Source: Methanomassiliicoccaceae archaeon
Lineage (GTDB): Archaea > Thermoplasmatota > Thermoplasmata > Methanomassiliicoccales > Methanomassiliicoccaceae
Direction of reading: 5' to 3'
Length of the DNA: 64,000 bases
Assembly (NCBI GenBank): GCA_040776945.1
Contig: JAXGZN010000002.1
Location: 320,001 to 384,000 of the forward strand
The notes under the pieces are model-generated. The model saw only the letters and a program-made list of their open reading frames with translations. It made no database searches and had not been told where the DNA came from. Positions 38,530-52,755 of the stretch are shown here, one piece after another. The translations under genes and the position numbers were made by a program. Each line of letters opens with the position of its first letter. The stretch's first letter is position 1.

Positions 38530-40593
38530 TTAGTACAAGCGGCGGGACCTCATCAGGACGATCAGCACGGCGGCAAGCACTCCGAAGATGGCCGCGCCGC
38601 CGACGATGATCATATCCTGGCCGATCCCCGCTCCCTCGGAGGACGCCTTGGCCTTGACGGTGAGGATGGCGCTCCGCTCCGCGGTGAGGCCGTCGGCCAT
38701 GACCGCCAGCACCGCTATCTTGTGGCTCCCCTCGGTGAGGCCCGTGATGTCGTATCCGGCGGCATCGCTTCCCAACGTTGCGACGACATGATCGTCCACC
38801 AGCACCTCGATGCGGTCAACCTCGGCCCCGGAAGCGCTGAAGACCCAGGTCAGCCGAACGGCATCGCCGACCGAGTACGAAGGGCTCAGGGGGCCCAACA
38901 TCAAGGACACGCTTCCGAGGGGGCCGTCCGGCCAGCCCCCGGATGCCGCGGTGAATGAGGTCATGTTCTGACCCCAGCGGCCGTCGGCGTCCATGGCCCA
39001 GATGGTCACGCGGTGCTCCCCGGCGCTCAGTCCGATGAAGGTGACGGACCTGAGGGCCGGATCGACCGTCCTGTTCTCCTCCCCGTCCAGGGAGGCGCGG
39101 AGTTCGGCGATGCCCGACATCGAGGTCACTTGGAACGGGACAGTGGCGGTGGTGGACGGGTACGCTCTCCCCGGTTCGGAGAAGGTGATCACCGGGTCCA
39201 TGGTCTCGATCGCTATGACCTCGGTCCTCTCGCTCTCGATGTTGCCGGCCCGGTCGGTGGAGTAGTACCGAACCAGGTGAGCACCGCCATTGGAGATGGT
39301 GACCTCCCCGGCATAGCGGGTCCAGGCGCTGGAATCGACCCGATAGTACGTCGAATCGACGCCCGATCCCTCGTCCACCGGGGTCAGCGAGAACGTGGCG
39401 GGGCCAGCGTAGGTGCTCTCGCCAACGCTGTCGCCGCTCACCGAGATGTCGGTTGCCGGAGCGGCGGTGTCCACCACGGTATAGGCTTCAGGCTCGGACC
39501 TCATGGCCTCGTTCTCCCCGTTCACGTCGAATCCCTGGGTGAAGAACTCGTACCTTCCGTCGGCCGGTGCGGTGAACGATATCGGGCTCGAGTAATGGTT
39601 CCCGCCGTACATGGTCCATCCGCCGCTGCTCCCCTGCCGGTAGTAAAGGTTGACATGGTCGAACGGCACGGAGGGCTGGTTCACGGTGAAGCCGATCTTG
39701 AACGTACGGGAGCCCTGCGCTGAGGCCAGGTTGTCCACGCTTGTGCTCACCGGAACGTTGCCGGGTGCGTCCGACCCGGTGACGATTATGTCATCAAGGT
39801 AGACGCCCTCCCTCATGCCGCCGTTGATGATGCGGACTCCTTGGGCGGCGAAGGCGTCGTCGGCGTCGCCGCCCTCCGGAGCAATGGTCCCGGACACGAA
39901 CTCGAAGCCGATGGCATCGATATCGTTGGGCACACCGATGCTCACATGGATCCATGTCCTAGCCGAGGCCTGGAACTCGCTGTCCGTCCACAGGACCCTT
40001 TTGGTCGCGGGGTCATTGCGGTCGGTCCAATAGAGCACGTTCAGGAAGTCGTACCCCACGCTCTCGCCGGTCAAGGGCTGCTTGGCGTCCGAGGCCCCGG
40101 TGTCGGACCAGAACCAGAAGCTGAGGGTCACGGTGCTGAAGGCGGACGCTCCGACCACCGCCTTCTTCATTATGGAGTCCTGGCCGGTATCGTACCTCGG
40201 CACCCACTGGGACTGGGGCGTGGTGCCCGGAAGGCCGGTGACATTGACGTTCCATGCCTGGGTGTATCCTATGTTGCCGTCGGCCTGGGTGACCGGGACA
40301 AGATAATGGCTGTTGTACCCGGTCCTGGACGCGTAGATGGCGTGGGCGCTATTGAGCAGATTGTGCGCGGAGCGGCACCAATAGTCCTCATTGACCATGC
40401 CGCCGGCGGCGTCCTTGTTCAGATCGAACCGTTGCCAGCTCGCGTCCCATTCAGCGTAGGTCGCTTGTTCCGCGTCCTCCCGGAGGAGGACCGCGGACGC
40501 CGGCGCTGCGGACGTGTTCACGGGCACGGACGTCAGGACAAGGAGCGAGAGCAGGACCAGTGTGCAGGCGGCGGTCAGCCTTTGACGGAGCAT
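38530..40593 (-). CDS. Cell-surface protein: signal peptide, beta-sandwich/Ig-like domains, C-terminal TM anchor
   Basis: N-terminal signal, DTAAP and YYSTDRAGN.E Ig-like motifs, hydrophobic tail followed by RSRR. Confidence 0.85.
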   Translation of the reverse strand: MLRQRLTAACTLVLLSLLVLTSVPVNTSAAPASAVLLREDAEQATYAEWDASWQRFDLNKDAAGGMVNEDYWCRSAHNLLNSAHAIYASRTGYNSHYLVPVTQADGNIGYTQAWNVNVTGLPGTTPQSQWVPRYDTGQDSIMKKAVVGASAFSTVTLSFWFWSDTGASDAKQPLTGESVGYDFLNVLYWTDRNDPATKRVLWTDSEFQASARTWIHVSIGVPNDIDAIGFEFVSGTIAPEGGDADDAFAAQGVRIINGGMREGVYLDDIIVTGSDAPGNVPVSTSVDNLASAQGSRTFKIGFTVNQPSVPFDHVNLYYRQGSSGGWTMYGGNHYSSPISFTAPADGRYEFFTQGFDVNGENEAMRSEPEAYTVVDTAAPATDISVSGDSVGESTYAGPATFSLTPVDEGSGVDSTYYRVDSSAWTRYAGEVTISNGGAHLVRYYSTDRAGNIESERTEVIAIETMDPVITFSEPGRAYPSTTATVPFQVTSMSGIAELRASLDGEENRTVDPALRSVTFIGLSAGEHRVTIWAMDADGRWGQNMTSFTAASGGWPDGPLGSVSLMLGPLSPSYSVGDAVRLTWVFSASGAEVDRIEVLVDDHVVATLGSDAAGYDITGLTEGSHKIAVLAVMADGLTAERSAILTVKAKASSEGAGIGQDMIIVGGAAIFGVLAAVLIVLMRSRRLY

Positions 40594-41116
40594 TATGGCC
40601 GGCGAGCGACCTTCTCGGACTTAGCGATTGCCATTGCCGTTATCTTCATTGAGAACAGTAAGCGCGTACCGACCGGTCTAGGCGCTCCGGCGGAGCACGG
40701 GGTCCTGCCAGGGTGATGGAAATGGCCGGTCGAACATCAGGGAGGTCATCAAAGCCAGGGACGCGGAATGGTTCGATCAAGGACAATGGGACGGAGTTTG
40801 CTCTGGCTGGTCAGGGAGGTCATTATCCATGCTGATGCTCACGTCAATCCCAATATCTATGTAGATAACAGATGTAGATCGCTGTCACGGTCCGCAGCCC
40901 GCCTTCGAAGGCGAGAGCCTAGCGGTCATCTCTTGTTCGACCGAACCGATCATGGGCTCGGGCGCCATTTCGCCTGGACCTCCCGCCCGGGCCCCCTTCC
41001 ATCAGCATCCTGTGGAGATCGAACGGCGCCGAGCTTCGCTTGTGAAAGCTCACAGCTACCTTGGGCCGCCATGTTCTCTGCTCTTCGACGCGGTCCTCGA
41101 CTCCTGTACTGTCCCC

Positions 41117-42499
41117 CTACGGCAGGTCCAGCCCCAGTAGCCTGAGGGTGTCGCACGCCGAGTCGTAGATCTTTAGGTGCTCCTTGGTCGGGAGCACGGT
41201 CTTCACGTTGTAGCACTCCTGGAACGTTCTTCCCTGGGGGGCGGTGAGATAGCGCCGCTCATAGCCGCGGACGATCTTGTGGACCATCCTGTTCACCTCG
41301 TCCACGCTCATGCCCGCCGCCAGGGTGGCGACCTCGCCGAGCATGCGCGCCTCCATTCCCGTGGTGTAGTCCTCCAGCACGCCCTTGGCGGACGCGCAGC
41401 CCGATAAAAGCTCTCGCCCGCTGGCGGTGTCCAGGAGCGCCTGGGCGGCGATCTCGTGCAGGCACATCTCGGTGCACGGGCCGGAGATGGTGTAGAACTG
41501 GTTAGCGATCAGCAGGTCCGTGTTCGCGTCGATCGCGGCGGCAGAGTGGCCGGCGACCTGCAGCGTCTCCCGTGAGGTGGTCATACCCCAGCGTATGTGT
41601 ATGGGGCCAGATAGGTGATAGCTGGCGTTGAGCAGGGTGAACGAGGCCAAGGTGGTCGCCACGTCGCAGATGGCCGTCTCCTCGATTCCGCCTATGTAGC
41701 CGCCGAGGATCGGCATCTGCTCAACCATGATAACGTTCCCGTTGTGGAGCCAGCCGGAGATCATCACCAGGCTCATGTTGTCGATCTTCAGCTCGTTGAG
41801 CTGAGACACCTCGTGGCTGTCGGTCGGCTTCATGCCGTCCTTGCCATCACAAGCGAGACGCCCCGCTGCGGACAGCGGTGTCTCAGGTCCCTATATGGCC
41901 ATGTATGGTCGTCCGGCCCGGTTGCACGCTTCCCGCACCGCCCTTATCTCGGCGAGCGTGGCCTTGATCTCGAACGGCGTGTTGGTGCTCGACGGGATCC
42001 CCCCGACCGTGGCCATGACTCCGTTGACAAGGGTGTCCACGACCGGCTCCTGGGCGTAGCTCTGCATCATTGGCACGAACACGTCCTCGGAGACCGTGGC
42101 CCCGGTCGGCCCGCCCTGGATGACCGGCTTCTTCGGAGCATTGGCCCGGCGGGGCTCCAGGACCACCTTCTCCCCGTACTCTCCCAGCTGTATGCGCTTG
42201 GGAGCCCCTCTGATTCCCGCCTTGACCTCGTCCTCTGTGACCCTTATGACGCGCTGGGTATCGACGTTGAGGATGCCGACCGATACCAGCATCTCCATTC
42301 CCGCCTGGAACAGCCTCTTCTTCAGGTCAGGGTCCACCGGGATGAACTTATCTCCAAAGTCCAGCTGGTACTTCTCTTTGAGTTCCGCCGCGGCGTCGGG
42401 CACGGTCTTGTTGTCCCATACGTTCTCGGTGGTCATGGGACCCCGCTCCGAGCGCAGGTAGGTCTCATAGACGGTCAATGCCTTCTCGATCGACGCCAA
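41117..42499 (-). CDS. mtmB: Monomethylamine:corrinoid methyltransferase 2 (Pyl at in-frame TAG 41891-41893)
   Basis: ORFs 41891..42565 and 41117..41833 are in one frame; RPYMAI-TAG-GPE. Likely TTG start 42499 after GGAGAG puts Pyl at codon 203. The terminal codon is also TAG. Confidence 0.93.
41855..41884 (-). promoter_or_regulatory. Candidate Pyl-insertion stem-loop downstream of mtmB2 UAG
   Basis: GAGAC-A-CCGCTG-TCCG-CAGCGG-GGC-GTCTC, starting 6 nt after UAG; identical to the copy in mtmB1. Confidence 0.6.
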
Positions 42500-42519
42500 A
42501 GTTGCTCTCTCCAATGCTC

Positions 42520-43161
42520 TCACATCATCAGCGCGTTGACCCTCTGGACCACCATGGACCCGCACTCACAGTACGCGTCACCGCCGATGTTCTCCACCCA
42601 CTTGCTGGTGCAGCAGGCGCCACCGAATATGGTCTTAACATTGAAAAGTTTTTCTTCCTTGAGACGCTCGATGATCTTCCTCTGGCCGACTAGGGTGGTG
42701 GTCATGAGCGCCGAGGCTCCGACGATGCTGGCGTTCATCTCCTTCGCCGCCTGGGTGAACAGGTGAGGGGGAACGTCCTTTCCTAAGTCATATACCAGGA
42801 ACCCGGCGCTCCTAAGGAACGCGGACACAACGTGCTTCCCGATCTCATGTATGTCCCCCTCCACGGTCCCTATGACCACCACGCCCTTGGACGGGATTTT
42901 CTCCTCGCCCATATGCCTCTCGTAGATGTTGATGGCCTGGGACATCGCCTGGGACGCGGCCAGGACCTGGGGCAAGAACATCCTGCCCTCGTTGAACATG
43001 TCGCTTATCTCCGCCATGCCCGCGCCGAGCCCCTTCTCGATGGCTTCCGCCGGACTGATGCCCATCCGCACCGCCTCCGTGGCGGCAGACACAGCCAACT
43101 TCTTATCGTATCTCATCACTGCCTCTTTCAATAAGGCCAGTATCTCGTCCTTGCTTCTCAA
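42520..43161 (-). CDS. mtmC: Methylamine corrinoid protein 2
   Basis: MFLPQVL, GDIHEIGK (DxHxxG) and SALMTTT motifs; TTG start after GGAGGAG; directly upstream of mtmB2. Confidence 0.9.
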   Translation of the reverse strand: MRSKDEILALLKEAVMRYDKKLAVSAATEAVRMGISPAEAIEKGLGAGMAEISDMFNEGRMFLPQVLAASQAMSQAINIYERHMGEEKIPSKGVVVIGTVEGDIHEIGKHVVSAFLRSAGFLVYDLGKDVPPHLFTQAAKEMNASIVGASALMTTTLVGQRKIIERLKEEKLFNVKTIFGGACCTSKWVENIGGDAYCECGSMVVQRVNALMM

Positions 43162-43338
43162 ACTATCTCCTCCCACACTCCGTTCCCACCGTTCCCTCCA
43201 AACGATAATCGCGAAGTCCCACTCAGTGTTTCGTGATTGTTAAGATATGCACCTGTAAGTACAGAATGATTTCGGGAAGAAGAGAGCAAGACTCCGCCGG
43301 GACTCCGGCTACAGCATGGCCTGCAGGGGCGCCTCATA

Positions 43339-44976
43339 TCACGCCTCTCCGCTCTCACCGGCCCTAAGTATCTTGATCTTCATCACATGCTCCGGGCATA
43401 CCAGCTCGCAGCGCTTGCACGCCGTCCCCAAGCATAGGTCGGACCGGACCCTGACGCGGGGCACATCGCCGTCGACGATGACCAGGGCCTTCTCGGGGCA
43501 GGACGCCTCGCACTTGCGGCACAGGATGCATCCATCGAGCTTTCCGGTGAGCACGGTACCCGGGTCCCGGAGCACGGTGATCCCCAGCTCCCCGAGGTCG
43601 GGGATGTCCCGGCTGACCTTCCTCTCGACCATGGCCTCCACCGGCTCAAGCCGCAGATGCGGCAGCGAATAGATGTCCAGCATGTCATTGTACGACGCCA
43701 TCGGCATGCCGTAGGACCACAGGGAAAGCTCGATGGAGTAGAGGTTCTTGAAGGTCTCCGAGGTCGCGAACATGCAGTGGGTCGCCCGGAGCTTCTTCGC
43801 GAACTCTCTCAGCTCGTCCAGGTCCTTTCTCCCGGTGGTGATGTCGCGGGCCATGGCCAGGGATGTGTTCCCATACTGAATTATCCTGGTCGAGCCCGGC
43901 GACACCATCCCCACCCGCTGGGCCTTCCCGGCGTCGACGTACAGCCCGGACGCGCCGGACATGAACGAGGTCGGCACGTCGTCCACCCATATGCCCGCTT
44001 CCCTCATCAGCGTGAGGTAGCCGGAGCGCAGGGCGCCGATGGCCTTCCCTGCCTCGGCCACGTCCCCCTCGGTGATGAAAACGCCGTCCTGCAGATGCAC
44101 CCTTGCGTCCGGCGTGGTGATGCGGGGCAGCCGGACGAGCCCGCTCCGCAATCCGCAGTCCAGGGCCGCCACCACCCCGGTACCGGTGATGCCCTTGGCC
44201 CGGCTGTGCATCTCCCCTCTCGCCTTCAGACCTCCGTTCTCCGGTGCGATCACGTCGCCCCGCCTAGCCTCGTAACCCTCGTCGAGGACCCAGCACTCCC
44301 AGCCGTCCTCGGTGATGTTGGCGTCCGAAATCGTCCCCGGAGCGGCTAGCATGCCCATCTCGATTTGCTGCCCCTCCAGAGCCGGCCCGGCGGCGGCCGA
44401 GCCCGAATAGATCTCGCCGTCCTTGATCAGCGCCATCTCCGCGTTGGTGCCATAGTCGATGACCAGGCACGGCTCCTCCTGCTCCAACGCCCCAGTCATG
44501 AGCAGCATCGCCAGAGCGTCCGCTCCGATCTCGTGCCCGACCGCCGGAGGTATGATCACCGAGGCGTCGCCTATCAGCCCCAGGCCGAGCTCGGCGGCGC
44601 CCACGATATCACCGTCCCTCTTAGGAGGGACGACCTTGAGCGTCTCTAGCATCCGCTTTCCGGCGTACGCCAGGTCACGGATCTCTATCTTCTGGAAGAG
44701 CGAGAGCTGGAACGGGTTCCCGCATACCCCTAAGGTGGTGACCTTTCCCAGATCGACCTTCAGGAGAGGGAACAGCCTGGAGACCGTATCGATGATGAGC
44801 CGGTTCGCCTCGTCCTCGCCCGCGTCAATGGCGAAGTTGATGTGGTCGATGACGTTCGAGCCGGGAATGGGATGCCTCGAGGTTATGGCGGTGGAGATGG
44901 TCCTGCCGTCAGCTAGGTCGATGGCCTGTGCCCGGAACCCGCTGGTCCCCAGGTCGAGAGCGATCCCCAGCGGCAT
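43339..44976 (-). CDS. ramA: Methylamine corrinoid protein reductive activase
   Basis: LDLGTSGFR, DYGTNAE and SAAAGPALEGQ motifs plus a C-terminal 2x[4Fe-4S] domain (CILCRKCEASCP, CLGTACKRCELVCP); TGATG overlap with pylD. Confidence 0.93.
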   Translation of the reverse strand: MPLGIALDLGTSGFRAQAIDLADGRTISTAITSRHPIPGSNVIDHINFAIDAGEDEANRLIIDTVSRLFPLLKVDLGKVTTLGVCGNPFQLSLFQKIEIRDLAYAGKRMLETLKVVPPKRDGDIVGAAELGLGLIGDASVIIPPAVGHEIGADALAMLLMTGALEQEEPCLVIDYGTNAEMALIKDGEIYSGSAAAGPALEGQQIEMGMLAAPGTISDANITEDGWECWVLDEGYEARRGDVIAPENGGLKARGEMHSRAKGITGTGVVAALDCGLRSGLVRLPRITTPDARVHLQDGVFITEGDVAEAGKAIGALRSGYLTLMREAGIWVDDVPTSFMSGASGLYVDAGKAQRVGMVSPGSTRIIQYGNTSLAMARDITTGRKDLDELREFAKKLRATHCMFATSETFKNLYSIELSLWSYGMPMASYNDMLDIYSLPHLRLEPVEAMVERKVSRDIPDLGELGITVLRDPGTVLTGKLDGCILCRKCEASCPEKALVIVDGDVPRVRVRSDLCLGTACKRCELVCPEHVMKIKILRAGESGEA

Positions 44977-45833
44977 CAGATGGCCTCCATCCACACCGCT
45001 CTGCCCTCTAGCAGAGGGGCGCGCGGCAGGGACAGACTGGCGCTCCAAACCGCCATCACCGAAACTCCGATCTGCAGGGGATCGTGCACCAGCGTCGCCA
45101 TCTTGCGGATGCCGATCTCGTCGAAGGAGAAAGGCATCCCCGGGGACGATACCACGCATCCTTGCTGGACCCACTCCCCTGGTATCCTAGCCGGTGAAGC
45201 GTTCAATATGAGGTCGTGACCCTTGACTGCCTCCATCAGGTCATCGCAGACCGTGAACTCCCTGAACTTCGATCTCAGGGCTTCCGCCTTGGAGCGATCG
45301 ACGTCGACCACCGTGACCTTCGCGCCATTCCTCGCCAGCAGCTCGGCCGAACAGCTCCCGACCCGTCCAGCGCCGATCAGCAGGACGTCCCTGCCTCTCA
45401 GGCCGCCGGCGGCCTCCCGCAGGGCGGTGAAGTAGCCAAGAGCGGTGGACCTGATGTTGTTGACGGCCCGCCGGGCCCGGCAATTGATCGCCAGGAACTC
45501 GTTGTCGTCGGCCATGAAGATGAGGTCGGCCCCGGACCCCAGCGCCTCGCCGAGGCCGGCAACGTCGGTCTCCTCGGTGACATATGCCTTCGGCCCAAGG
45601 TGCTCGACGATGGCGCAGACCGATTCCGAGAAGCCCGCGGTCGCGCCGAGGCCAGCGGTGACAGGGACGCACGCGGCCGTAAGGCCCTCCATGTCCAGTT
45701 CGTGGAGGTCTATCCCCACGGAGGTGTAGGCAAGCTCCTTCATGGTCATTCCCAGGGCCCTGGCGAGGGACGAGTCCCGCCCCTGTGAGGAGGATGGCAC
45801 GTCCCTGATCATCTCCGGCGTAAGTCTGGTCAT
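44976..45833 (-). CDS. pylD: Pyrrolysine synthase (dehydrogenase)
   Basis: MTRLT, VPVTAGLG...GFS, FMADD, IGAGRVG and HDPLQIGV motifs; position in the pyl operon. Confidence 0.93.
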   Translation of the reverse strand: MTRLTPEMIRDVPSSSQGRDSSLARALGMTMKELAYTSVGIDLHELDMEGLTAACVPVTAGLGATAGFSESVCAIVEHLGPKAYVTEETDVAGLGEALGSGADLIFMADDNEFLAINCRARRAVNNIRSTALGYFTALREAAGGLRGRDVLLIGAGRVGSCSAELLARNGAKVTVVDVDRSKAEALRSKFREFTVCDDLMEAVKGHDLILNASPARIPGEWVQQGCVVSSPGMPFSFDEIGIRKMATLVHDPLQIGVSVMAVWSASLSLPRAPLLEGRAVWMEAI

Positions 45834-46987
45834 CAGATAACCTCCTCTGAACCCTCGAGACCCTCGGCGCGCGCGATCTCCCGGATGCACCTGGTCCTCT
45901 TCTCCCTGACGAGCTCAGAAGTGCTGCCGGAGAACATCAGCGTCCCCCTCCAGCTCCTTGCTCCGGGCCTGTGATCGGTCATCGCGTCATCAGCGCCGAA
46001 AAGGCCAGGAGCTATCCTGGGGGATCGGACCTCGGCGAACCCCCTCTCTCCGCACGACCGCATGCGGCCATCGTCGGCGGCGATGTGCTCGTAGACCGAC
46101 GCGCCCTGCCTGACGGGGCCGGCATCCTCCAAGCGGCCATGGACCAGCGCTCCCACCAGCCGCTCCAGGAGATTGACTCCGGTAGCGTGGTATACCGCCG
46201 CGGGGGTCTGGCTGGGGATCCGCGCGTCGATCTCCAGCACCTTTGGGACGCCGCCGCACACGATGGCCTCAACGTCCATGATGCCCCGGAGCCCCATCCC
46301 TTCCGCGATCTTCCTCGCGATGCCGGCGAAGGCAGCCTCGACCGAAGGTTCCAGCCCCTCAGGGGGGCAGCGGACCATGCGGCAGTCGTACCCTGCGTCC
46401 AGAACAACCTCGGTGATCACCATGGGCACCGCCCGAGCTCCGTCCCCGATGACCTCGATGGAGATGTTCGGCCCTTCCACGAACTCCTGGACTATGGGCT
46501 CCTCACCCAGCGCCCTGACCGCCTCAATGCCCATCTCCAGCTCCTCCGGCCCGCTCGCCTTCGCCACCCCTACGCTCCCGCTCTGCCCGGAGGGCTTCAC
46601 CACCACGGGGAAGCCGCAGTTCGGCCAGGGTGACGGAACAGGGACCCCCATCCGCTCGAACAGCTGATTGGAGTGCAGCTTGGACGACGAGATCTCGTAG
46701 GCCCTCATATCGAAGAGAAGGGGCGTTTCCAGCTCTCGGAACATATCGCTCAGGCATATGAGCGCAGCGTAGTTTTCGTTGGCCGGGAGGACGGCATCGC
46801 AATCCTCCAGGACCTTGGCCGCCCGTCCGCGTTCCAAGGTCACGTCCAGAACGACAGCCTCGTCCGCCAGCGACAGAGCGGGGGCGTCCGTTCGGCGGTC
46901 CACCACGAGGGTCTCATAGCCCGCCTTCCGGGCCAGATAGGCGGCTTCCATCCCCTGCAGGGCCCCTCCCACGATGCCAAGCTTCAT
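45833..46987 (-). CDS. pylC: 3-methylornithine--L-lysine ligase (ATP-grasp)
   Basis: GGALQGMEAAYLA, VKPSGQSGSVGV and LEIDARIPSQTP motifs. Confidence 0.95.
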   Translation of the reverse strand: MKLGIVGGALQGMEAAYLARKAGYETLVVDRRTDAPALSLADEAVVLDVTLERGRAAKVLEDCDAVLPANENYAALICLSDMFRELETPLLFDMRAYEISSSKLHSNQLFERMGVPVPSPWPNCGFPVVVKPSGQSGSVGVAKASGPEELEMGIEAVRALGEEPIVQEFVEGPNISIEVIGDGARAVPMVITEVVLDAGYDCRMVRCPPEGLEPSVEAAFAGIARKIAEGMGLRGIMDVEAIVCGGVPKVLEIDARIPSQTPAAVYHATGVNLLERLVGALVHGRLEDAGPVRQGASVYEHIAADDGRMRSCGERGFAEVRSPRIAPGLFGADDAMTDHRPGARSWRGTLMFSGSTSELVREKRTRCIREIARAEGLEGSEEVI

Positions 46988-48087
46988 GTCCTGACCCCCC
47001 TGTCCGCGGCCTTCCAGTTCTCTACCAGCGACGAGTAGGCGGAAGGCATCGCCATCCTGAGACCCAAGCCGTCCAGGATCTCCTCTACCTGAGGGACCGT
47101 CCGTCCGCCGGCCTCGATATCTAGGTCATGCTGCGCCACCCCGGCCAGACCGTGGCTGGGAGGTATTATCGAAGTGATGACATTGGCCCCCGCCACCAGC
47201 CTGGACCGTAGGCCGCCGATCCCCTCAACGTCCAGGCTCGCCGGTATCAGCCGGTCGGGGTACATCAACCTCATTATCGCTATGGCTGTCAGCTCATCTC
47301 GGAACAGGGCATGGTCGCGCTCGGCCATGGGCGTATTGCTCTGGGGAACGAACCCCATCGCCCTCACCTGCCGGACGCCCAGCTCGCCCATGATCTGGAC
47401 CGATCTTGCTCGATCGGCCGCGGTCTCCCCCACGCCGACCATGATCCCCTCCTCGGCCAGCATCCCGGAGTTCATCGCCCATTTCTTCTGGGCGAGCCTC
47501 GTGTCATAATCCTGCCCCGGCCGGAGGAAGGAGAACAGGGCGCGGTTATGTGTTTCCTGGTAGCAGGCGAACCAGTCCCCTCCGGCCTGCCTGAGCCTGG
47601 GGAACACCTCCTGGGGGACAACGCCCGGAGAGACCATCAGGGGAACCTCGACCGCATCGTTCACCCTCTGCACAAGGTCCACGAGATTGGAGCAATCGCC
47701 CCCCTGGTGCATATGAGGGTCCTCCCCCATGGTGAGGTCGACCAGATGCACCCCGGAGTCCTCAAGGGCGGTGGACAGGTCAATGATCTCCTCCAGGGTC
47801 TTGCGGTACCTTACGCTATGGTGGTTCGTGCTGCGATAGAAGCAGAACGAGCAGTTGTTGCGGCAGTAGGTCGAGAAGTACACGAACCCGTAGCAGAACA
47901 CCGCACTGCCGAAGTGCCTCTCCTTGACCTCCCTGGCCGCAGCGAACAGGTCGTCCAGCAGGGTCTGGTCCTTGATCGAGAAGAGAACCTCAAGGTCCTC
48001 TGCAGACGCTTTCGACCCATTCTTCAGACCGGATATCAATTCCTGCGCGCGGCAGGCGTCCGGTGAGCTCCGCCCCCTATATGTCAA
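46984..48087 (-). CDS. pylB: 3-methylornithine synthase (radical SAM)
   Basis: YGFVYFSTYCRNNCSFC, LTMGED, YQETHN, IPASLDVEG and GANVITSIIP motifs. No ATG near the start: TTG 48087 (overlapping the pylS end) or TTG 48039. Confidence 0.93.
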   Translation of the reverse strand: MTYRGRSSPDACRAQELISGLKNGSKASAEDLEVLFSIKDQTLLDDLFAAAREVKERHFGSAVFCYGFVYFSTYCRNNCSFCFYRSTNHHSVRYRKTLEEIIDLSTALEDSGVHLVDLTMGEDPHMHQGGDCSNLVDLVQRVNDAVEVPLMVSPGVVPQEVFPRLRQAGGDWFACYQETHNRALFSFLRPGQDYDTRLAQKKWAMNSGMLAEEGIMVGVGETAADRARSVQIMGELGVRQVRAMGFVPQSNTPMAERDHALFRDELTAIAIMRLMYPDRLIPASLDVEGIGGLRSRLVAGANVITSIIPPSHGLAGVAQHDLDIEAGGRTVPQVEEILDGLGLRMAMPSAYSSLVENWKAADRGVRT

Positions 48088-48904
48088 GGCGGGCCCCCCG
48101 CAAGTACATGAGGCTTCGCCCAACCTTCTTGATGTTGCTAGCTCCGGTCTTCACCATGAGCAGGCGTTCCAGTCCATAACCGGCTCCCACCCAGGCATCG
48201 GTAATCCCATGAGCGCCATCGAGCCTGTGGGGCCCACATGCCGCCGAGGCCACCTCGATCCCGTTGACTTCCACGTCCAGAGTGTCGCCGTATACCTCGG
48301 AATCGGTGGTGCACAGTTCGTAGTCCAGACCGACGGTCCTCATTATAAGGTCGATATGCGCCCTAAGGCAGGTCATGGGATCGCCTTCCGGGGCCATCTC
48401 CACCAGGTTGAGCATGGTGAACTCCTCGAGATGGTCTGAGCCGCGGCTCTCCTTCCGATAGCAGGTCCCGATCTCGAACATGCGCAGGGGCATCTTCGCC
48501 GTGCGCTTCAGATGACGCATCAAGAAATACAGGTTCGGGGCGAGCATAGGTCGGAGGCAGCGCCCCTCGTCCAGCCAGAACACCTGGTGATGAAGAGGGT
48601 GCGAATCGTCGATCCCCATCTTGGACAGCGCTCTTGAGGAGATTATGGTCGGGGTCCTGACCTCGAGGAAACCGTTGCTGATGAGAGCATGAGCGAGGAC
48701 CTCCTCCAAGTGGGCCAATCGGTCCCGCTCGGGCCGTTTCTGAACATACCTTATCTCCTTCCGGTTGGCGGCCTGGTGATGCGCAACCTCAACAGCGAAC
48801 GCCTCATCCCGTTCCTCGCTGGTCTCGAACCTCTTGATCACATCAGGGGTCCCGCCGAGCTCCCTCAGCCTCTGCTTCTGAGATGACGTCCACTCAATGG
48901 CCAT
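48077..48904 (-). CDS. pylS: Pyrrolysyl-tRNA synthetase lacking the N-terminal domain
   Basis: 275 aa; QKQRLREL, LRPMLAPNLY, YRKESRGSDHLEEFTMLN and GAGYGLERL motifs; ends in TAG. Confidence 0.97.
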   Translation of the reverse strand: MAIEWTSSQKQRLRELGGTPDVIKRFETSEERDEAFAVEVAHHQAANRKEIRYVQKRPERDRLAHLEEVLAHALISNGFLEVRTPTIISSRALSKMGIDDSHPLHHQVFWLDEGRCLRPMLAPNLYFLMRHLKRTAKMPLRMFEIGTCYRKESRGSDHLEEFTMLNLVEMAPEGDPMTCLRAHIDLIMRTVGLDYELCTTDSEVYGDTLDVEVNGIEVASAACGPHRLDGAHGITDAWVGAGYGLERLLMVKTGASNIKKVGRSLMYLRGARLDI

Positions 48905-48946
48905 TGGAATCCCCCCTGTAAGGGCTGAATGATAATGGCAAATTTA

Positions 48947-49018
48947 TGGCGAAGTGCCCGGGAGTCGAACCCGGCTGCCGCGGCTGTAGAGGCCTGGTGG
49001 TCGCCGGACCAACACTCC
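48947..49018 (-). tRNA. pylT: tRNA-Pyl (anticodon CUA)
   Basis: GGAGTGT T GGTC CGGC GACC A CCAGGC CT CTA CA GCCGCGG CAG CCGGG TTCGACT CCCGG GCACTTC G CCA: folds as a cloverleaf with a 4-nt D loop, 3-nt variable loop, G discriminator and encoded CCA. Confidence 0.97.
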
Positions 49019-49199
49019 ATCCATTACGAAGCATGTGCAGTATGTCCGCCTTTGGATAGATATCAGGAGATTTATCACTTGTCAAGAACAGGGAACGCAG
49101 ATAGGCTCGTCCGGCGTTCGGCCTCGAAGATCCCTCAGTACCCGGAGCGGATTGAGAAATGGCCTTATACCTCTCGTTTTTCATCTGTTCCCCATTTTG

Positions 49200-49400
49200 A
49201 AGAATGTGAATGATAATATAAAGACTTTTTGCCTTATCGTTGGCCATCAAAATAATACATATTTAAAATTATCTTTTTTTCCTTTTATATGGCATTAAAA
49301 TGTTATATAAAGTTTGTTACTCGATACTATTGTTTTATATACATAATTAGCAATAGGTAGGTTAGCCATTAATATTTTGAATAATGGCATATTCGGAGGA
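49200..49400. promoter_or_regulatory. AT-rich divergent promoter region for the pyl operon (-) and mtmC1B1 (+)
   Basis: TATA-like boxes at ~49215-49222 (minus strand TTTATATT preceded by an A-rich BRE-like run), 49303-49311 and 49333-49341 (plus strand). Confidence 0.65.
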
Positions 49401-49406
49401 TACAGA

Positions 49407-50045
49407 ATGAGCAACAAAGCTGAAATACTGGGACGTCTCAAGAAATCCGTAGAGACTTGGGACGTCAAGTTGGCCGAATCGGCGGCAAAAGAGGCTTTGG
49501 CGGCCGGGATCGAGCCGGGAGAGGCTGTGGAGAAGGGCCTTGGAAAGGGCATGGAGACCATCAGCAACCTGTTCGATGACGCCAAGATCTTCCTGCCCCA
49601 GGTTCTGGCCGCGTCCCAGGCCATGGAGAAGGCGCTGAAGATCTTCGAGCCGGCCATGACCAAGGGAAAGTCCGCGCTCAGGGGAACCGTGGTCATCGCC
49701 ACTGTTCTGGGCGACATCCACGAGATCGGGAAGAACGTGGTTGCGGCCATGCTGAAGGGCGCTGGATACAATGTGATCGACCTTGGCAGAGATGTAGCTC
49801 CAGAGAAGTTCGTGGAGGCGGCCAAGGAGAACAATGCCGATGTGGTAGGTGCCTCTGCGCTGATGACCACCACGGTAGTCGTTCAGAAGGACATCGTTGA
49901 AATGCTCAAGGCAGAGAAGGTCAAAGTGAAGACGATCTTCGGAGGCGCTCCTGCCAACGAGGAATGGGTCCAGAGCATCGGCGGGGACAAGTACTGCCCA
50001 TCTGGCGCCGAGGCGGTTGAGATGGTCAACGCTCTAGTGGGGTGA
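49407..50045 (+). CDS. mtmC: Methylamine corrinoid protein 1
   Basis: IFLPQVL, GDIHEIGKN and SALMTTT motifs; GGAGG RBS before ATG 49407. Confidence 0.93.
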   Translation: MSNKAEILGRLKKSVETWDVKLAESAAKEALAAGIEPGEAVEKGLGKGMETISNLFDDAKIFLPQVLAASQAMEKALKIFEPAMTKGKSALRGTVVIATVLGDIHEIGKNVVAAMLKGAGYNVIDLGRDVAPEKFVEAAKENNADVVGASALMTTTVVVQKDIVEMLKAEKVKVKTIFGGAPANEEWVQSIGGDKYCPSGAEAVEMVNALVG

Positions 50046-50051
50046 TATGAA

Positions 50052-51431
50052 ATGGCACTTGCAAGACCACTATCAGTCTTTGATGTGTACGACCGCTTCA
50101 TGAAGGGCAAGAAGGTCACCGAAGCGGAGTGGGACTACCAGATCATACCCACCAACGCGGCGGCGATGAAGAAGAAGTACAACATCAAGTTCGGCAAGGA
50201 AATGATCCCCGAGGACAAGGATCTGAAGAACCGGCTGTTCCAGGCTGGAATGGAGATGCTGGTCACCACCGGGTTCTACAACTCCGATCTCGGCCGTGTC
50301 ATGAACATAACCGAGGAAGAAATCCGGGAAGGGATTAAGAAGACCCCCACCAAGCTTCTCCTGGGAGAGTACCGTGACGCAGCCAGGTTCGAGCCCAGGC
50401 ACGGCAACGACAGGAGAAAACCGATCATCCAGGGAGGGCCGACCGGAGCGCCTGTCTCTGAGGAAGTGTTCGTCCAAGTCATGCAGAGCTACGCCCAGGA
50501 GGCTACTGTAGATACCCTGGTGAACGGCGTCATGGCCACCATCGAAGGCCACAGCGCTACCACCAACACTCCATGGGAGATCAAGGCGGAGCTCGCAGAG
50601 CTCAGGGCAGTGAGGGAGGCCAGAATAAGGGCCGGACGACCATACATGGCCATATAGGGACCTGAGACACCGCTGTCCGCAGCGGGGCGTCTCGCTACGA
50701 ACCTTCTTGGCGGGCTGAGGCCTTGTGACTCCCACGAGTGCTCGCAGCTCAATGAACTAAAGATAGACATGGCAGCCCTCAACATGCTTTCCGGATGGAT
50801 CCTCAACGGGGATACCATCATGATCGAGCAGATGCCGATCTTCGGGGGGTACTGCGGAGGGGTCGAGGAAACTGCCATCTGCGATGTGGCCACCCACCTG
50901 GCGTCGTTCACCCTGTTCAACGGGAACTTCCACCTGGACGGTCCGATCCACATCCGCTGGGGCATCACCACTTCTCGGGAGACGCTGCAGATCGCCGGCC
51001 ACGTGGCCGCCGCGGTCGATGCGAACACCGACCTGTTGATCGCCAACCAGTACTACCCCATATCGGGTCCCTGCACCGAGATGTGTCTACTCGAGACGGC
51101 CGCTCAGGCCATGGTGGACACTGCCTCCGGTCGGGAACTGCTGTCCGGGTCCGCGGCCGCCAAGGGCGTGGCCATGGACAAGACCACCGGTATGGAAGCC
51201 AGGATCATGGGCGAAGCTTCGATTGCGACCTGTGGCATGAAGATCTCCGACGTCAACGAGATACTCGAGAAGCTGGTCAGCTCCTACGAGGGCAACTACC
51301 ACAAGCCTCCTGCCGGCAAGCGCTTCCAGGAGTGCTATGACGTCAATACCGTCAAGCCCACCGACGAGTACCTGAAGGTCTACGACAACGTTGTCAAGAC
51401 CCTGAGGGACCTCGGCCTAGCGATCAAGTGA
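50052..51431 (+). CDS. mtmB: Monomethylamine:corrinoid methyltransferase 1 (Pyl202, TAG 50655-50657)
   Basis: In-frame TAG at codon 202, the same position as Pyl202 of Methanosarcina MtmB; GPE, SHE, IEQMP and NQYY motifs follow. Confidence 0.96.
50664..50693 (+). promoter_or_regulatory. Candidate Pyl-insertion stem-loop downstream of mtmB1 UAG
   Basis: GAGAC/GTCTC and CCGCTG/CAGCGG stems with a UCCG loop, starting 6 nt after UAG. Confidence 0.6.
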
Positions 51432-51450
51432 GCCTAGGGCTCCAGAAACC

Positions 51451-51468
51451 TTTTTTCCTTTTATTTTT
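51451..51468 (+). terminator. Oligo-T archaeal terminator-like tract after mtmB1
   Basis: TTTTTTCCTTTTATTTTT about 20 nt after the stop codon. Confidence 0.5.
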
Positions 51469-51495
51469 AACAACTGGACGGCTAACAGGAGGAGA

Positions 51496-52755
51496 ATGGA
51501 AATGCGAATAGGAGCAAAGATCGGAGTAATCTTGATAATCGCGTGCCTAGCGATGTTATTGGTGCCAGTAGGCCACGCCTCCGCTTTTGGTGAGGAGCTG
51601 ACCACTCCTACCGGAGGCACGGGAGCTACGGGCGACCAATCGTTGCTGGAGGATGAGCTGCATAAATACAACAAGAACCAGGACGTCTGGTTCATGCTCA
51701 TGCTGGTCGCCTTCCTGATGATGTTCATCCGGAAGTTCGAGTGGGGCGTCGCGCTCGCGGTGCTCCTGGTGACAGTCACCAGCTTTCTGGCATACATGGC
51801 CGTCGAGGAGTTCTTCTTCGATAAAGCGTGGAACCAGGACCTGATGTTGATGGGAGTGATATGTTCGATCACCGTGGTCATCGCGATAGGGATGTTCCTT
51901 GGGACGGTGAAGATGTGGCAGTACTTGCTCGTCGGAGCCATATTCGGTCCGATGTTCGCTTTTATCGAGTGGTTCATGTTCACCTATCTGGACGGTGTTG
52001 TCGACCCCGGTGGATCGATCCTGGTGCACATGTGCGCGGCGTACTTCGGCATGGGCGTTATATTGACTATCAGGGAGAAAAGAGCGTTCCATGAGCCGAT
52101 GTACACCACAACACATAGCGTCACCTTCGTCTGGTTGGCGTCAATGCTATTATGGATGTTGTGGCCTTCCTTCGTGACCGCCCTGCTTCCCGCGGACCAG
52201 GTCACTTGGGGAATGATCACCTGCTACATGGCAGGCATAGGCTCGATAATCACCACCTATATCATATGTCAGCTGGTGCAGAAGAAGGTCAATCCGCTGA
52301 TCTATACATACGCGATGCTGGCCGGCCCGGTGGCAATCGGTTCACCGCTGCTATCGGTCAACCAGTGGGGAGCGCTCATAATCGGATTGATCGCCGGTGC
52401 CCTGTCCGCCCTGGCGTTCATCTACCTGCAGCCGTGGCTGTGCAAGAAGATCGGAGCGCTCGACGTCATGGGCGTGCACAACCTGCATGGTGTCGGAGGA
52501 TGGATCGGTGCCCTATCCGCTGCGATAATCATCGGTAGCGTGACCAACGCTATCGCCGCGGTCGGTGTCGTCATAATAACCATGGTCGTCGGCGGCATAA
52601 CCGGCGGCATCGTGAGACTGACCAGGGGGACCATCACCGATGACATGCTGTTCACCGATGACAGCGACTTCATAAAGACCGAGGCCCCACCGCTGGAGGC
52701 TCTGCCCAGGGAGGTGATTGTGGCAGGCGGGACAGTTCCTGCAGACCAACGTTGA
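51496..52755 (+). CDS. Amt/Rh-family ammonium/methylammonium channel (Rh-like)
   Basis: QDVWFM..FLMMF, DPGGSILVH..AAYFG, LWMLWPSF and DVMGVHNLHG motifs; cleavable-looking N-terminal signal. Confidence 0.88.
   Translation: MEMRIGAKIGVILIIACLAMLLVPVGHASAFGEELTTPTGGTGATGDQSLLEDELHKYNKNQDVWFMLMLVAFLMMFIRKFEWGVALAVLLVTVTSFLAYMAVEEFFFDKAWNQDLMLMGVICSITVVIAIGMFLGTVKMWQYLLVGAIFGPMFAFIEWFMFTYLDGVVDPGGSILVHMCAAYFGMGVILTIREKRAFHEPMYTTTHSVTFVWLASMLLWMLWPSFVTALLPADQVTWGMITCYMAGIGSIITTYIICQLVQKKVNPLIYTYAMLAGPVAIGSPLLSVNQWGALIIGLIAGALSALAFIYLQPWLCKKIGALDVMGVHNLHGVGGWIGALSAAIIIGSVTNAIAAVGVVIITMVVGGITGGIVRLTRGTITDDMLFTDDSDFIKTEAPPLEALPREVIVAGGTVPADQR

Follow-up and report, generated by a model that had tools for sequence, protein, structure and literature searches.

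In an archaeon of the Methanomassiliicoccaceae, the gene for pyrrolysyl-tRNA synthetase (PylRS), pylS, ends in an amber codon that lies on the probable initiation site of the next gene, pylB, encoding the first enzyme of pyrrolysine (Pyl) biosynthesis. The stretch analysed, called the window throughout, comprises 64,000 nt (contig C2, positions 320001–384000, of genome G000). The sequence observation at the pylS/pylB junction is confirmed: the stop and the codon before it repeat the ATA-TAG-G context of the Pyl codons in neighbouring mtmB genes, and both are conserved across the family. We tentatively propose that selection may have kept the pylS amber codon as an ambiguous stop on the site of pylB initiation, such that PylB output would follow the way UAG is read.

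Conservation of the pylS stop and its context

The pylS stop was surveyed across 151 genomes of the order Methanomassiliicoccales. The gene was present in 78 of these, at 81 places, and the stop was read at all 81: TGA in 60, TAG in 21 and TAA in none. All TAG copies belong to the window's family. Of its 24 genomes, 19 carry pylS, with 22 copies between them, and 21 of these copies end in TAG. The initial annotation, which had proposed a feedback switch at this junction, would have abandoned it had the stop been freely TAA or TGA in close relatives; this is not what the family shows. In a quick maximum-likelihood tree (IQ-TREE; 80 PylS sequences), the family falls into two old clades with TAG in 8/8 and 13/14 rows, joined by genus g22 of another family (three TGA copies). 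The distribution of TAG and TGA on this tree needs three changes.

Orthologue stops of five other TAG-ending genes of G000 were read in the same 24 genomes as controls; a few rows represent the same gene end in two pieces, and one L1 row short of the C-terminus was left out. Where the stop does not overlap a Shine-Dalgarno sequence, TAG was kept in 5/26 rows (PAD-type deiminase) and 9/25 rows (proteasome alpha). Where it does, retention was 17/23 for ribosomal L1, which has the pylS-like layout TAGGAGG...ATG, 10/16 for a transketolase-like beta subunit and 15/25 for ArgJ. The pylS TAG is thus kept best among the six genes compared, a ranking given without a p-value as the relatives are not independent samples. 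With the same reservation, pylS shows one mark of programmed read-through, a stop identity conserved beyond that of comparable genes. The TAG also persists in copies where the Shine-Dalgarno sequence does not use its G (L002, L004, L018 and L021). Its family-wide retention is not a chance pattern.

The last sense codon is conserved along with the stop. ATA ends 18 of the 20 Ile-ending family copies, compared with 38 of 174 codons at nine other conserved Ile columns of PylS, and 18 of the 21 TAG-ending copies read ATA TAG G. In G000, ATA makes up 25% of Ile codons. The L1 control, with the same TAGGAGG layout, has ATC, ATT, CTC, CTG or ATG before its stop and never ATA. Copies that have lost TAG within the clade (L006 and the three of g22) have lost ATA too. 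Furthermore, just three TAG copies lack ATA (L018, L020 and L021), and these alone among the 21 offer no out-of-frame run across the pylB start. Codon comparison indicates that ATA before the pylS TAG is held at the nucleotide level, and a conserved nucleotide context around the stop is a further mark of programmed read-through.

The same codon precedes genuine Pyl codons. Both mtmB genes of the window read gccATA TAG GGA CCT GAG (ATA-UAG at 50652–50657, plus strand, and 41896–41891, minus strand), and pylS reads gacATA TAG GGG GCG GAG. The initial annotation had called these contexts identical. The shared CATATAGGG and the GAG as third codon are indeed present; the GAG likeness is trivial, as the mtmB GAG forms the 5′ arm of the PYLIS hairpin and pylS carries no such hairpin. 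Across the family, ATA stands before the Pyl UAG in 29/29 distinct mtmB segments, 9/10 mttB and 10/10 mtbB (48/49 in these three mutually unrelated methyltransferase families; loci L165–L194 and L236–L255). The codons neighbouring the mtmB ATA-UAG vary, with three to six synonyms each. At 80 loci across the order, counting Methanomassiliicoccales-type mtmB only, the codon before UAG was ATA (25), GTT (25), GTC (17), GTA (11), ATG (1) or TCA (1), and never GTG. ATA is limited to part of the order, mostly Methanomassiliicoccus-type genomes, and Val codons drift elsewhere. ATA before UAG may be a lineage-specific context for Pyl decoding. Within G000, ATA-TAG-G was found at 5 of 441 called TAG "stops", three of them being pylS and the 5′ halves of the two mtmB genes; the remaining two have tails that resemble noise.

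The start of pylB and the read-through frame

The pylB frame (open reading frame 48123..46984) contains no ATG or GTG ahead of its radical-SAM cysteine motif, leaving TTG at 48123, 48087 and 48039 as in-frame starts. Most family members start pylB at an ATG 10–16 nt past the pylS stop, preceded by GGAGG or GGTGA, a motif that often opens with the G of TAG. This ATG (+10) is lost in all five loci of the window's subclade (G000, G037, G081, G075 and G029, a single clade on the PylS tree), and the homologous codon of the window (48064–48066) is TCA. All 5/5 loci have a TTG at −11, counted from where the stop ends (cTTGAcATATAG), with GGGGGG or GGAGG 6–8 nt upstream. L004 offers no other canonical start between its preceding in-frame stop and the first residue that the pylB query matches. 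Homology to the PylB N-termini of relatives extends up to the position of the lost ATG; moving the start to TTG 48087 adds seven residues to PylB and creates an 11-nt gene overlap. The resulting layout (GGGGGG-N6-TTG) is like those of pylS (GGGGGG-N6-ATG) and pylC (GGGGGG-N7-ATG), and the 16S 3′ end reads ...GGATCACCTCCT (also given as ...CACCUCCU). Of the 18 differences between L003 and L005 just past the stop, 14 affect pylB wobble positions, a pattern indicating that the stretch codes for pylB from the pylS stop onward.

TTG 48087 is therefore the likely start of pylB. The initial annotation had also described pylB as lacking an ATG and had chosen this TTG, a choice borne out by its conservation and by the GGGGGG six bases upstream. 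It had considered independent initiation at TTG 48039 as the alternative. This is less likely, since the codon is GTG in L002 and absent in L003–L005, and the preceding AGGA leaves a spacing of 1 nt; the PylB profile match begins just two residues ahead of TTG 48039, so homology by itself would allow it. TTG 48123 was rejected because it is found only in the window and not kept in relatives, with an AGG that abuts it without a spacer. An internal TATA-type promoter at CATATAG was likewise dismissed, as a start about 25 nt downstream would fall past the pylB start.

The junction has two sequence features of a translationally coupled pair: a same-strand stop/start overlap (11 nt here; in relatives, an ATG at +10 to +16) and a Shine-Dalgarno sequence inside pylS. 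Termination-reinitiation at overlapping gene pairs is described for archaea (PMC6728339). Such pairs share with pylS/pylB the overlapping or nearly touching stop and start on one strand and the Shine-Dalgarno sequence within the upstream gene. They differ in that the usual overlaps are 4 or 1 nt (ATGA, TGATG), whereas pylS and pylB overlap by 11 nt and the stop can be decoded by a dedicated tRNA.

On the minus strand pylS ends in GAC ATA TAG, with ATA at 48082–48080 and TAG at 48079–48077. Reading this TAG as Pyl yields O+GAELTGRLPRAGIDIRSEEWVESVCRGP, ending at TGA 47992–47990 inside pylB. Both the pylS terminus and the extended product agree with the initial annotation. In 18 of the 21 TAG copies, read-through would run for 25–50 codons, out of frame, across the pylB start.

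We suggest that this arrangement could work as a negative feedback. The presence of Pyl-tRNA would make UAG ambiguous, as it has been shown to do in M. acetivorans (PMC12626013). A ribosome terminating at the pylS UAG would sit 8 nt past the first base of TTG 48087 and could re-initiate there, aided by the Shine-Dalgarno sequence. With charged tRNA-Pyl present, a share of ribosomes would instead insert Pyl and continue through 28 out-of-frame codons within pylB, to terminate at UGA 47992–47990, which lies 85–87 nt past UAG and 93–97 nt past the TTG. This should be too far for re-initiation: in Haloferax volcanii and E. coli, termination-reinitiation is almost lost once the distance reaches about 20 nt (PMC10666635). 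PylRS would gain a non-conserved tail of 29 residues in the process. More Pyl-tRNA would then mean less PylB and, by way of the linked ATGA/TGATG junctions, perhaps less PylC, PylD and RamA. The effect may be modest, since the Shine-Dalgarno run could also allow pylB to initiate independently. A wider proposal, which we think rather unlikely, would make AUA-UAG a lineage-wide signal favouring Pyl-tRNA over the release factor. This signal would be used at all methylamine methyltransferase genes and also at the pylS terminator, as a cis-acting sensor of charged tRNA-Pyl that throttles translation of PylB, PylC and PylD. The AUA in the P site is presumably read by an agmatidine-bearing tRNA-Ile2.

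Weighing the amber codon as switch or ordinary stop

The pylS TAG could also be an ordinary stop, locked in place by the pylB ribosome-binding site or, in the window's subclade, by the first pylB codons, with read-through as harmless noise. A stop held by such junction constraints is nearly as likely as the feedback switch, and many observations weigh on its side. TAG is a common stop in this organism. Among 1951 genes of G000 called with our own rough codon-usage gene caller, 1278 end in TGA, 441 (22.6%) in TAG and 232 in TAA, and the TAG share is 18–25% in every length class. Within −20 to +14 nt of the next same-strand start lie 52 TAG stops (distances are approximate, the start taken being the first start codon of each open reading frame), so Pyl-tRNA would disturb many operons besides pylS/pylB. 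The initial annotation had singled out pylS/pylB as the only junction to use amber. This holds within the operon, where the other junctions are ATGA, TGATG and TGATG, and fails genome-wide, where TAG ends about one fifth of genes. Back-up stops are no closer behind TAG genes, at a median of 28 codons compared with 24 for TGA and 21 for TAA. Ordinary TAG genes that end in Ile use ATC (11) and ATA (6) with neither avoidance of ATA nor preference for it. Across the genome, ordinary TAG stops were seen to avoid neither a preceding ATA nor A at −1, A being as common before TGA and TAA. Taken together with the back-up stops, this means that ATA-UAG alone is not clearly leaky.

The junction itself offers further grounds for an ordinary stop. 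Most family pylS junctions read TAGGAGG...ATG, and the control TAGs that overlap a Shine-Dalgarno sequence are also well kept (60–74%) in unrelated operons. An overlapping ribosome-binding site thus largely freezes TAG, which is the strongest ordinary explanation; in the window's subclade, the position of TAG inside pylB codons 3–4 adds a coding constraint. A Shine-Dalgarno sequence of this strength may moreover let pylB start on its own. Nor is amber indispensable to pylS. TGA ends L006, one of two pylS copies in G048 and the sole exception in the family, and 59/59 copies in the other two families (8 and 51, the latter being f7). An amber stop is thus not required in copy 1 of G048, in g22 or in any f7 copy, and four pylS copies of g8 have ATA before TGA. 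The all-TGA pylS of the Methanomethylophilaceae-type family fits that family's general avoidance of TAG. In many genomes of this type, pylS and pylB share a frame, with TGA plus 2–3 codons between them and an open frame of 355–357 codons after the stop (L023, L024, L026, L027, L029, L030 and several of L034–L081).

The pylS/pylB junction also misses two usual marks of programmed read-through, namely a downstream stimulatory RNA structure and an extension conserved as protein. The mtmB genes possess the former: 6 nt past UAG lies a hairpin (GAGAC-A-CCGCUG-UCCG-CAGCGG-GGC-GUCUC), and synonymous sites in codons +3 to +12 are nearly invariant. Across 70 distinct sequences of the order (loci L256–L335) this hairpin pairs in register in 85% of cells, compared with 38–47% when the partner is slid. 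Rfam PYLIS_1 (RF01982) matches the two mtmB copies of the window from the UAG onward, but both scores, 63.7 bits (E 1e-12) and 50 bits (E 9e-9), fall short of the gathering score of 70. At pylS, which shares ATA UAG G with these genes, a scan of 40500–52000 returned no Rfam PYLIS match down to E = 1, nor was a comparable hairpin seen. The local fold, a hairpin with TTG and TAG in its loop, is no better than shuffled sequences (z −0.29), and its 3′ arm is missing in L002.

The extension fares similarly. Beyond the stop, the sequences differ 92 times at wobble positions of pylB and 65 and 57 times at the other two positions. Tail identity is lower than pylB identity in seven of nine pairs, equal in one (L008/L013, 0.92 each) and higher in one (L001/L002, 0.35 vs 0.28). 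A functional tail was rejected on these grounds, with sequence and length varying (1–50 codons; 364 in L018). In L020 (genome G051) and L021 (G084), a second stop follows 1–2 codons past TAG (TAG GCG TGA and TAG CTG GGG TAA), and ATC rather than ATA stands before the TAG. In L018 the read-through frame is the pylB frame itself. The proposed uncoupling is impossible at these three loci.

An ordinary stop does, however, leave several findings unexplained. It does not account for the fixation of ATA at the last pylS codon, given its frequency at other Ile columns, and L1 has the same layout without ever having ATA. It does not predict that TAG is kept where the Shine-Dalgarno sequence makes no contact with it, or that it is kept better in pylS than in all five controls. 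The pairing of ATA loss with loss of the out-of-frame run (3/3) likewise has no place in it.

Read-through could instead be selected for its effect on PylRS, an unstructured tail of 25–50 residues lowering the activity or stability of the synthetase at high Pyl-tRNA levels and any effect on pylB being secondary. The conservation of TAG and ATA would suit this reading just as well, and a tail of this length is possible in 18/21 TAG copies. Solved chains of PylRS without an N-terminal domain end where the natural C-terminus aligns, so any tail would add to a complete fold. We nevertheless consider it improbable, because neither sequence nor length of the tail is conserved, its variation tracks pylB coding only, and two copies permit just 1–2 extra residues. 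Pausing would give the loop the opposite sign: when Pyl-tRNA is scarce, ribosomes dwelling at the pylS UAG would cover the pylB start (a positive loop) or would re-initiate better. UAG pausing in M. acetivorans is strong at low Pyl demand and low tRNA-Pyl charging (PMC13663744), and TTG 48087 lies inside the footprint of a ribosome at UAG. A positive loop would, however, worsen read-through at some 440 other TAG stops, and in most relatives the start lies 10 nt downstream of UAG, not upstream. We regard pausing as very improbable.

The pyl cluster and the wider question of UAG ambiguity

The genes pylT, pylS, pylB, pylC, pylD and ramA form a single, tightly overlapped cluster on the minus strand, flanked by both mtmB genes, each of which has one in-frame TAG. 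A tRNA-Pyl with a CUA anticodon adjoins a catalytic-domain-only PylS, followed by PylB, PylC and PylD in order, as in a Pyl cassette. All products scored above NCBIfam cut-offs at equivalog or subfamily level: PylS (TIGR02367, PylS_Cterm) at 280 bits (cut-off 178), PylB (TIGR03910) at 432 (348), PylC (TIGR03909) at 338 (248), PylD (TIGR03911) at 202 (150) and RamA at 715. PylS has no PylSn domain, and PylRS chains of 273–283 residues in the PDB align with it end to end (E 1e-82). The pylB/pylC, pylC/pylD and pylD/ramA junctions each carry a G-rich Shine-Dalgarno sequence 6–7 nt upstream of the start.

Features of the pylS/pylB junction and the surrounding cluster in the window
Feature	Position	Strand	Remarks
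pylT, tRNA-Pyl, anticodon CUA	48947..49018	-	first gene of the cluster; adjoins pylS; ARAGORN
pylS, PylRS without N-terminal domain, 275 aa + TAG stop	48077..48904	-	open reading frame list, translation, NCBIfam, PDB
GGGGGG, Shine-Dalgarno-like	48094..48099	-	six bases before TTG 48087, inside pylS codons; layout as at pylS, pylC
ATA, last sense codon of pylS	48080..48082	-	same codon precedes the Pyl UAG of family mtmB, mttB and mtbB
TAG ending pylS	48077..48079	-	inside pylB codons 3-4 (TAT AGG); TAG in 21/22 family copies
Read-through tail, 28 sense codons, then TGA 47992-47990	47990..48076	-	out of frame with pylB; translation
pylB, methylornithine synthase	46984..48087	-	likely start TTG 48087-48085; 11-nt overlap with pylS; NCBIfam TIGR03910
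pylC	45833..46987	-	ATGA overlap with pylB; junction reading, NCBIfam
pylD	44976..45833	-	TGATG overlap with pylC; junction reading, NCBIfam
ramA, corrinoid reductive activase	43339..44976	-	TGATG overlap with pylD; Pfam, NCBIfam, junction reading
mtmB copy 1	50070..51419	+	Pyl UAG 50655-50657; PYLIS_1-like element 50655-50754; context comparator
mtmB copy 2	41129..42478	-	Pyl UAG 41893-41891; PYLIS_1-like element 41893-41794

The cluster is represented in RNA-library contigs of four studies that match the window without any difference, each spanning the pylS/pylB junction. They agree with one transcript that extends from pylT, but are weak evidence: DNA can be present in such libraries, and contigs show neither strand nor translation and prove no single transcript. 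Contig ends lie at 49183 (two studies) and 49164 (one). The AT-rich spacer ahead of pylT (49164–49223, minus strand) has a TATA-like CTTTATATT upstream of these ends, which may mark the transcription start of the pylT–ramA operon.

The two old PylS clades of the family (L018–L022 and L031–L033 in one, L001–L017 in the other) are both present in three genomes. By housekeeping genes, G051 and G045 are the closest relatives of the window genome (84–96% identity in the five controls). Their pylS is only 56–60% identical to that of the window and belongs to the other clade; by paralogue sorting or transfer, the pyl cluster therefore has a history different from that of the genome.

The two mtmB copies beside the pyl cluster are the only Pyl genes found in G000, and no Pfam match for mttB or mtbB was obtained in this 99.8%-complete genome. 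The TAG share of G000 (about 22.6%) resembles that of Pyl-free archaea. In the literature, Pyl-positive archaea are given 1 to 27% TAG (PMC12626013), with 11.3% for M. luminyensis and 1.6% for Ca. M. alvus (PMC4153887). For this organism TAG is a normal stop, and Pyl-tRNA is presumably produced only on demand. The TAG share together with only two Pyl genes suggests that Pyl decoding is conditional rather than constant.

Autoregulatory recoding is familiar from release factor 2 (prfB), with a frameshift at an in-frame UGA, and from selenophosphate synthetase, which can itself contain selenocysteine. In these systems, as proposed for pylS, a gene of the decoding apparatus carries the codon read by that apparatus, and its output reports the apparatus's activity. 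They differ in that their sites lie inside the coding sequence and decide on the full protein, whereas in pylS the codon terminates the gene and would act on the one that follows. Pyl homeostasis in M. acetivorans offers a closer parallel. There, according to the main text of PMC12626013, UAG is read both ways and pyl gene expression rises at zero read-through; a sensor of read-through efficiency was inferred, not found, and a Pyl-containing repressor was proposed. The authors also describe an in-frame TAG near the pylB C-terminus and suggest that it may tune Pyl synthesis. Both cases would thus combine an ambiguous UAG, pyl output tied to UAG reading and a pyl gene with a TAG. The M. acetivorans response is transcriptional and its TAG lies in pylB, whereas in the window TAG ends pylS and the proposed action is translational and in cis. 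The word stem "Methanomassiliicocc" is absent from that main text. No statement on the pylS stop codon in Methanomassiliicoccaceae was found in the main texts and abstracts searched; the supplementary open reading frame tables of PMC4153887 and PMC12626013, beyond that scope, might list it.

The wider question is how Pyl-decoding archaea hold UAG ambiguous without damage to the proteome. This is acute in the Methanomassiliicoccaceae, where in G000 TAG ends about one fifth of genes and Pyl is needed for just two mtmB genes. A conserved amber codon in Pyl context, at the handover from PylRS to the first biosynthetic gene, is a simple and testable candidate for a sensor. If the proposal holds, it would give concrete form to the read-through efficiency sensor postulated for Methanosarcina. 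Similarly, an AUA-UAG rule, if true, would be a first sequence determinant besides PYLIS that tells Pyl codons and stops apart, with possible relevance to the many genetic-code-expansion tools that use PylRS/tRNA pairs of this order. Should the switch fail, the junction would still be a clear case of a ribosome-binding site freezing a stop codon.

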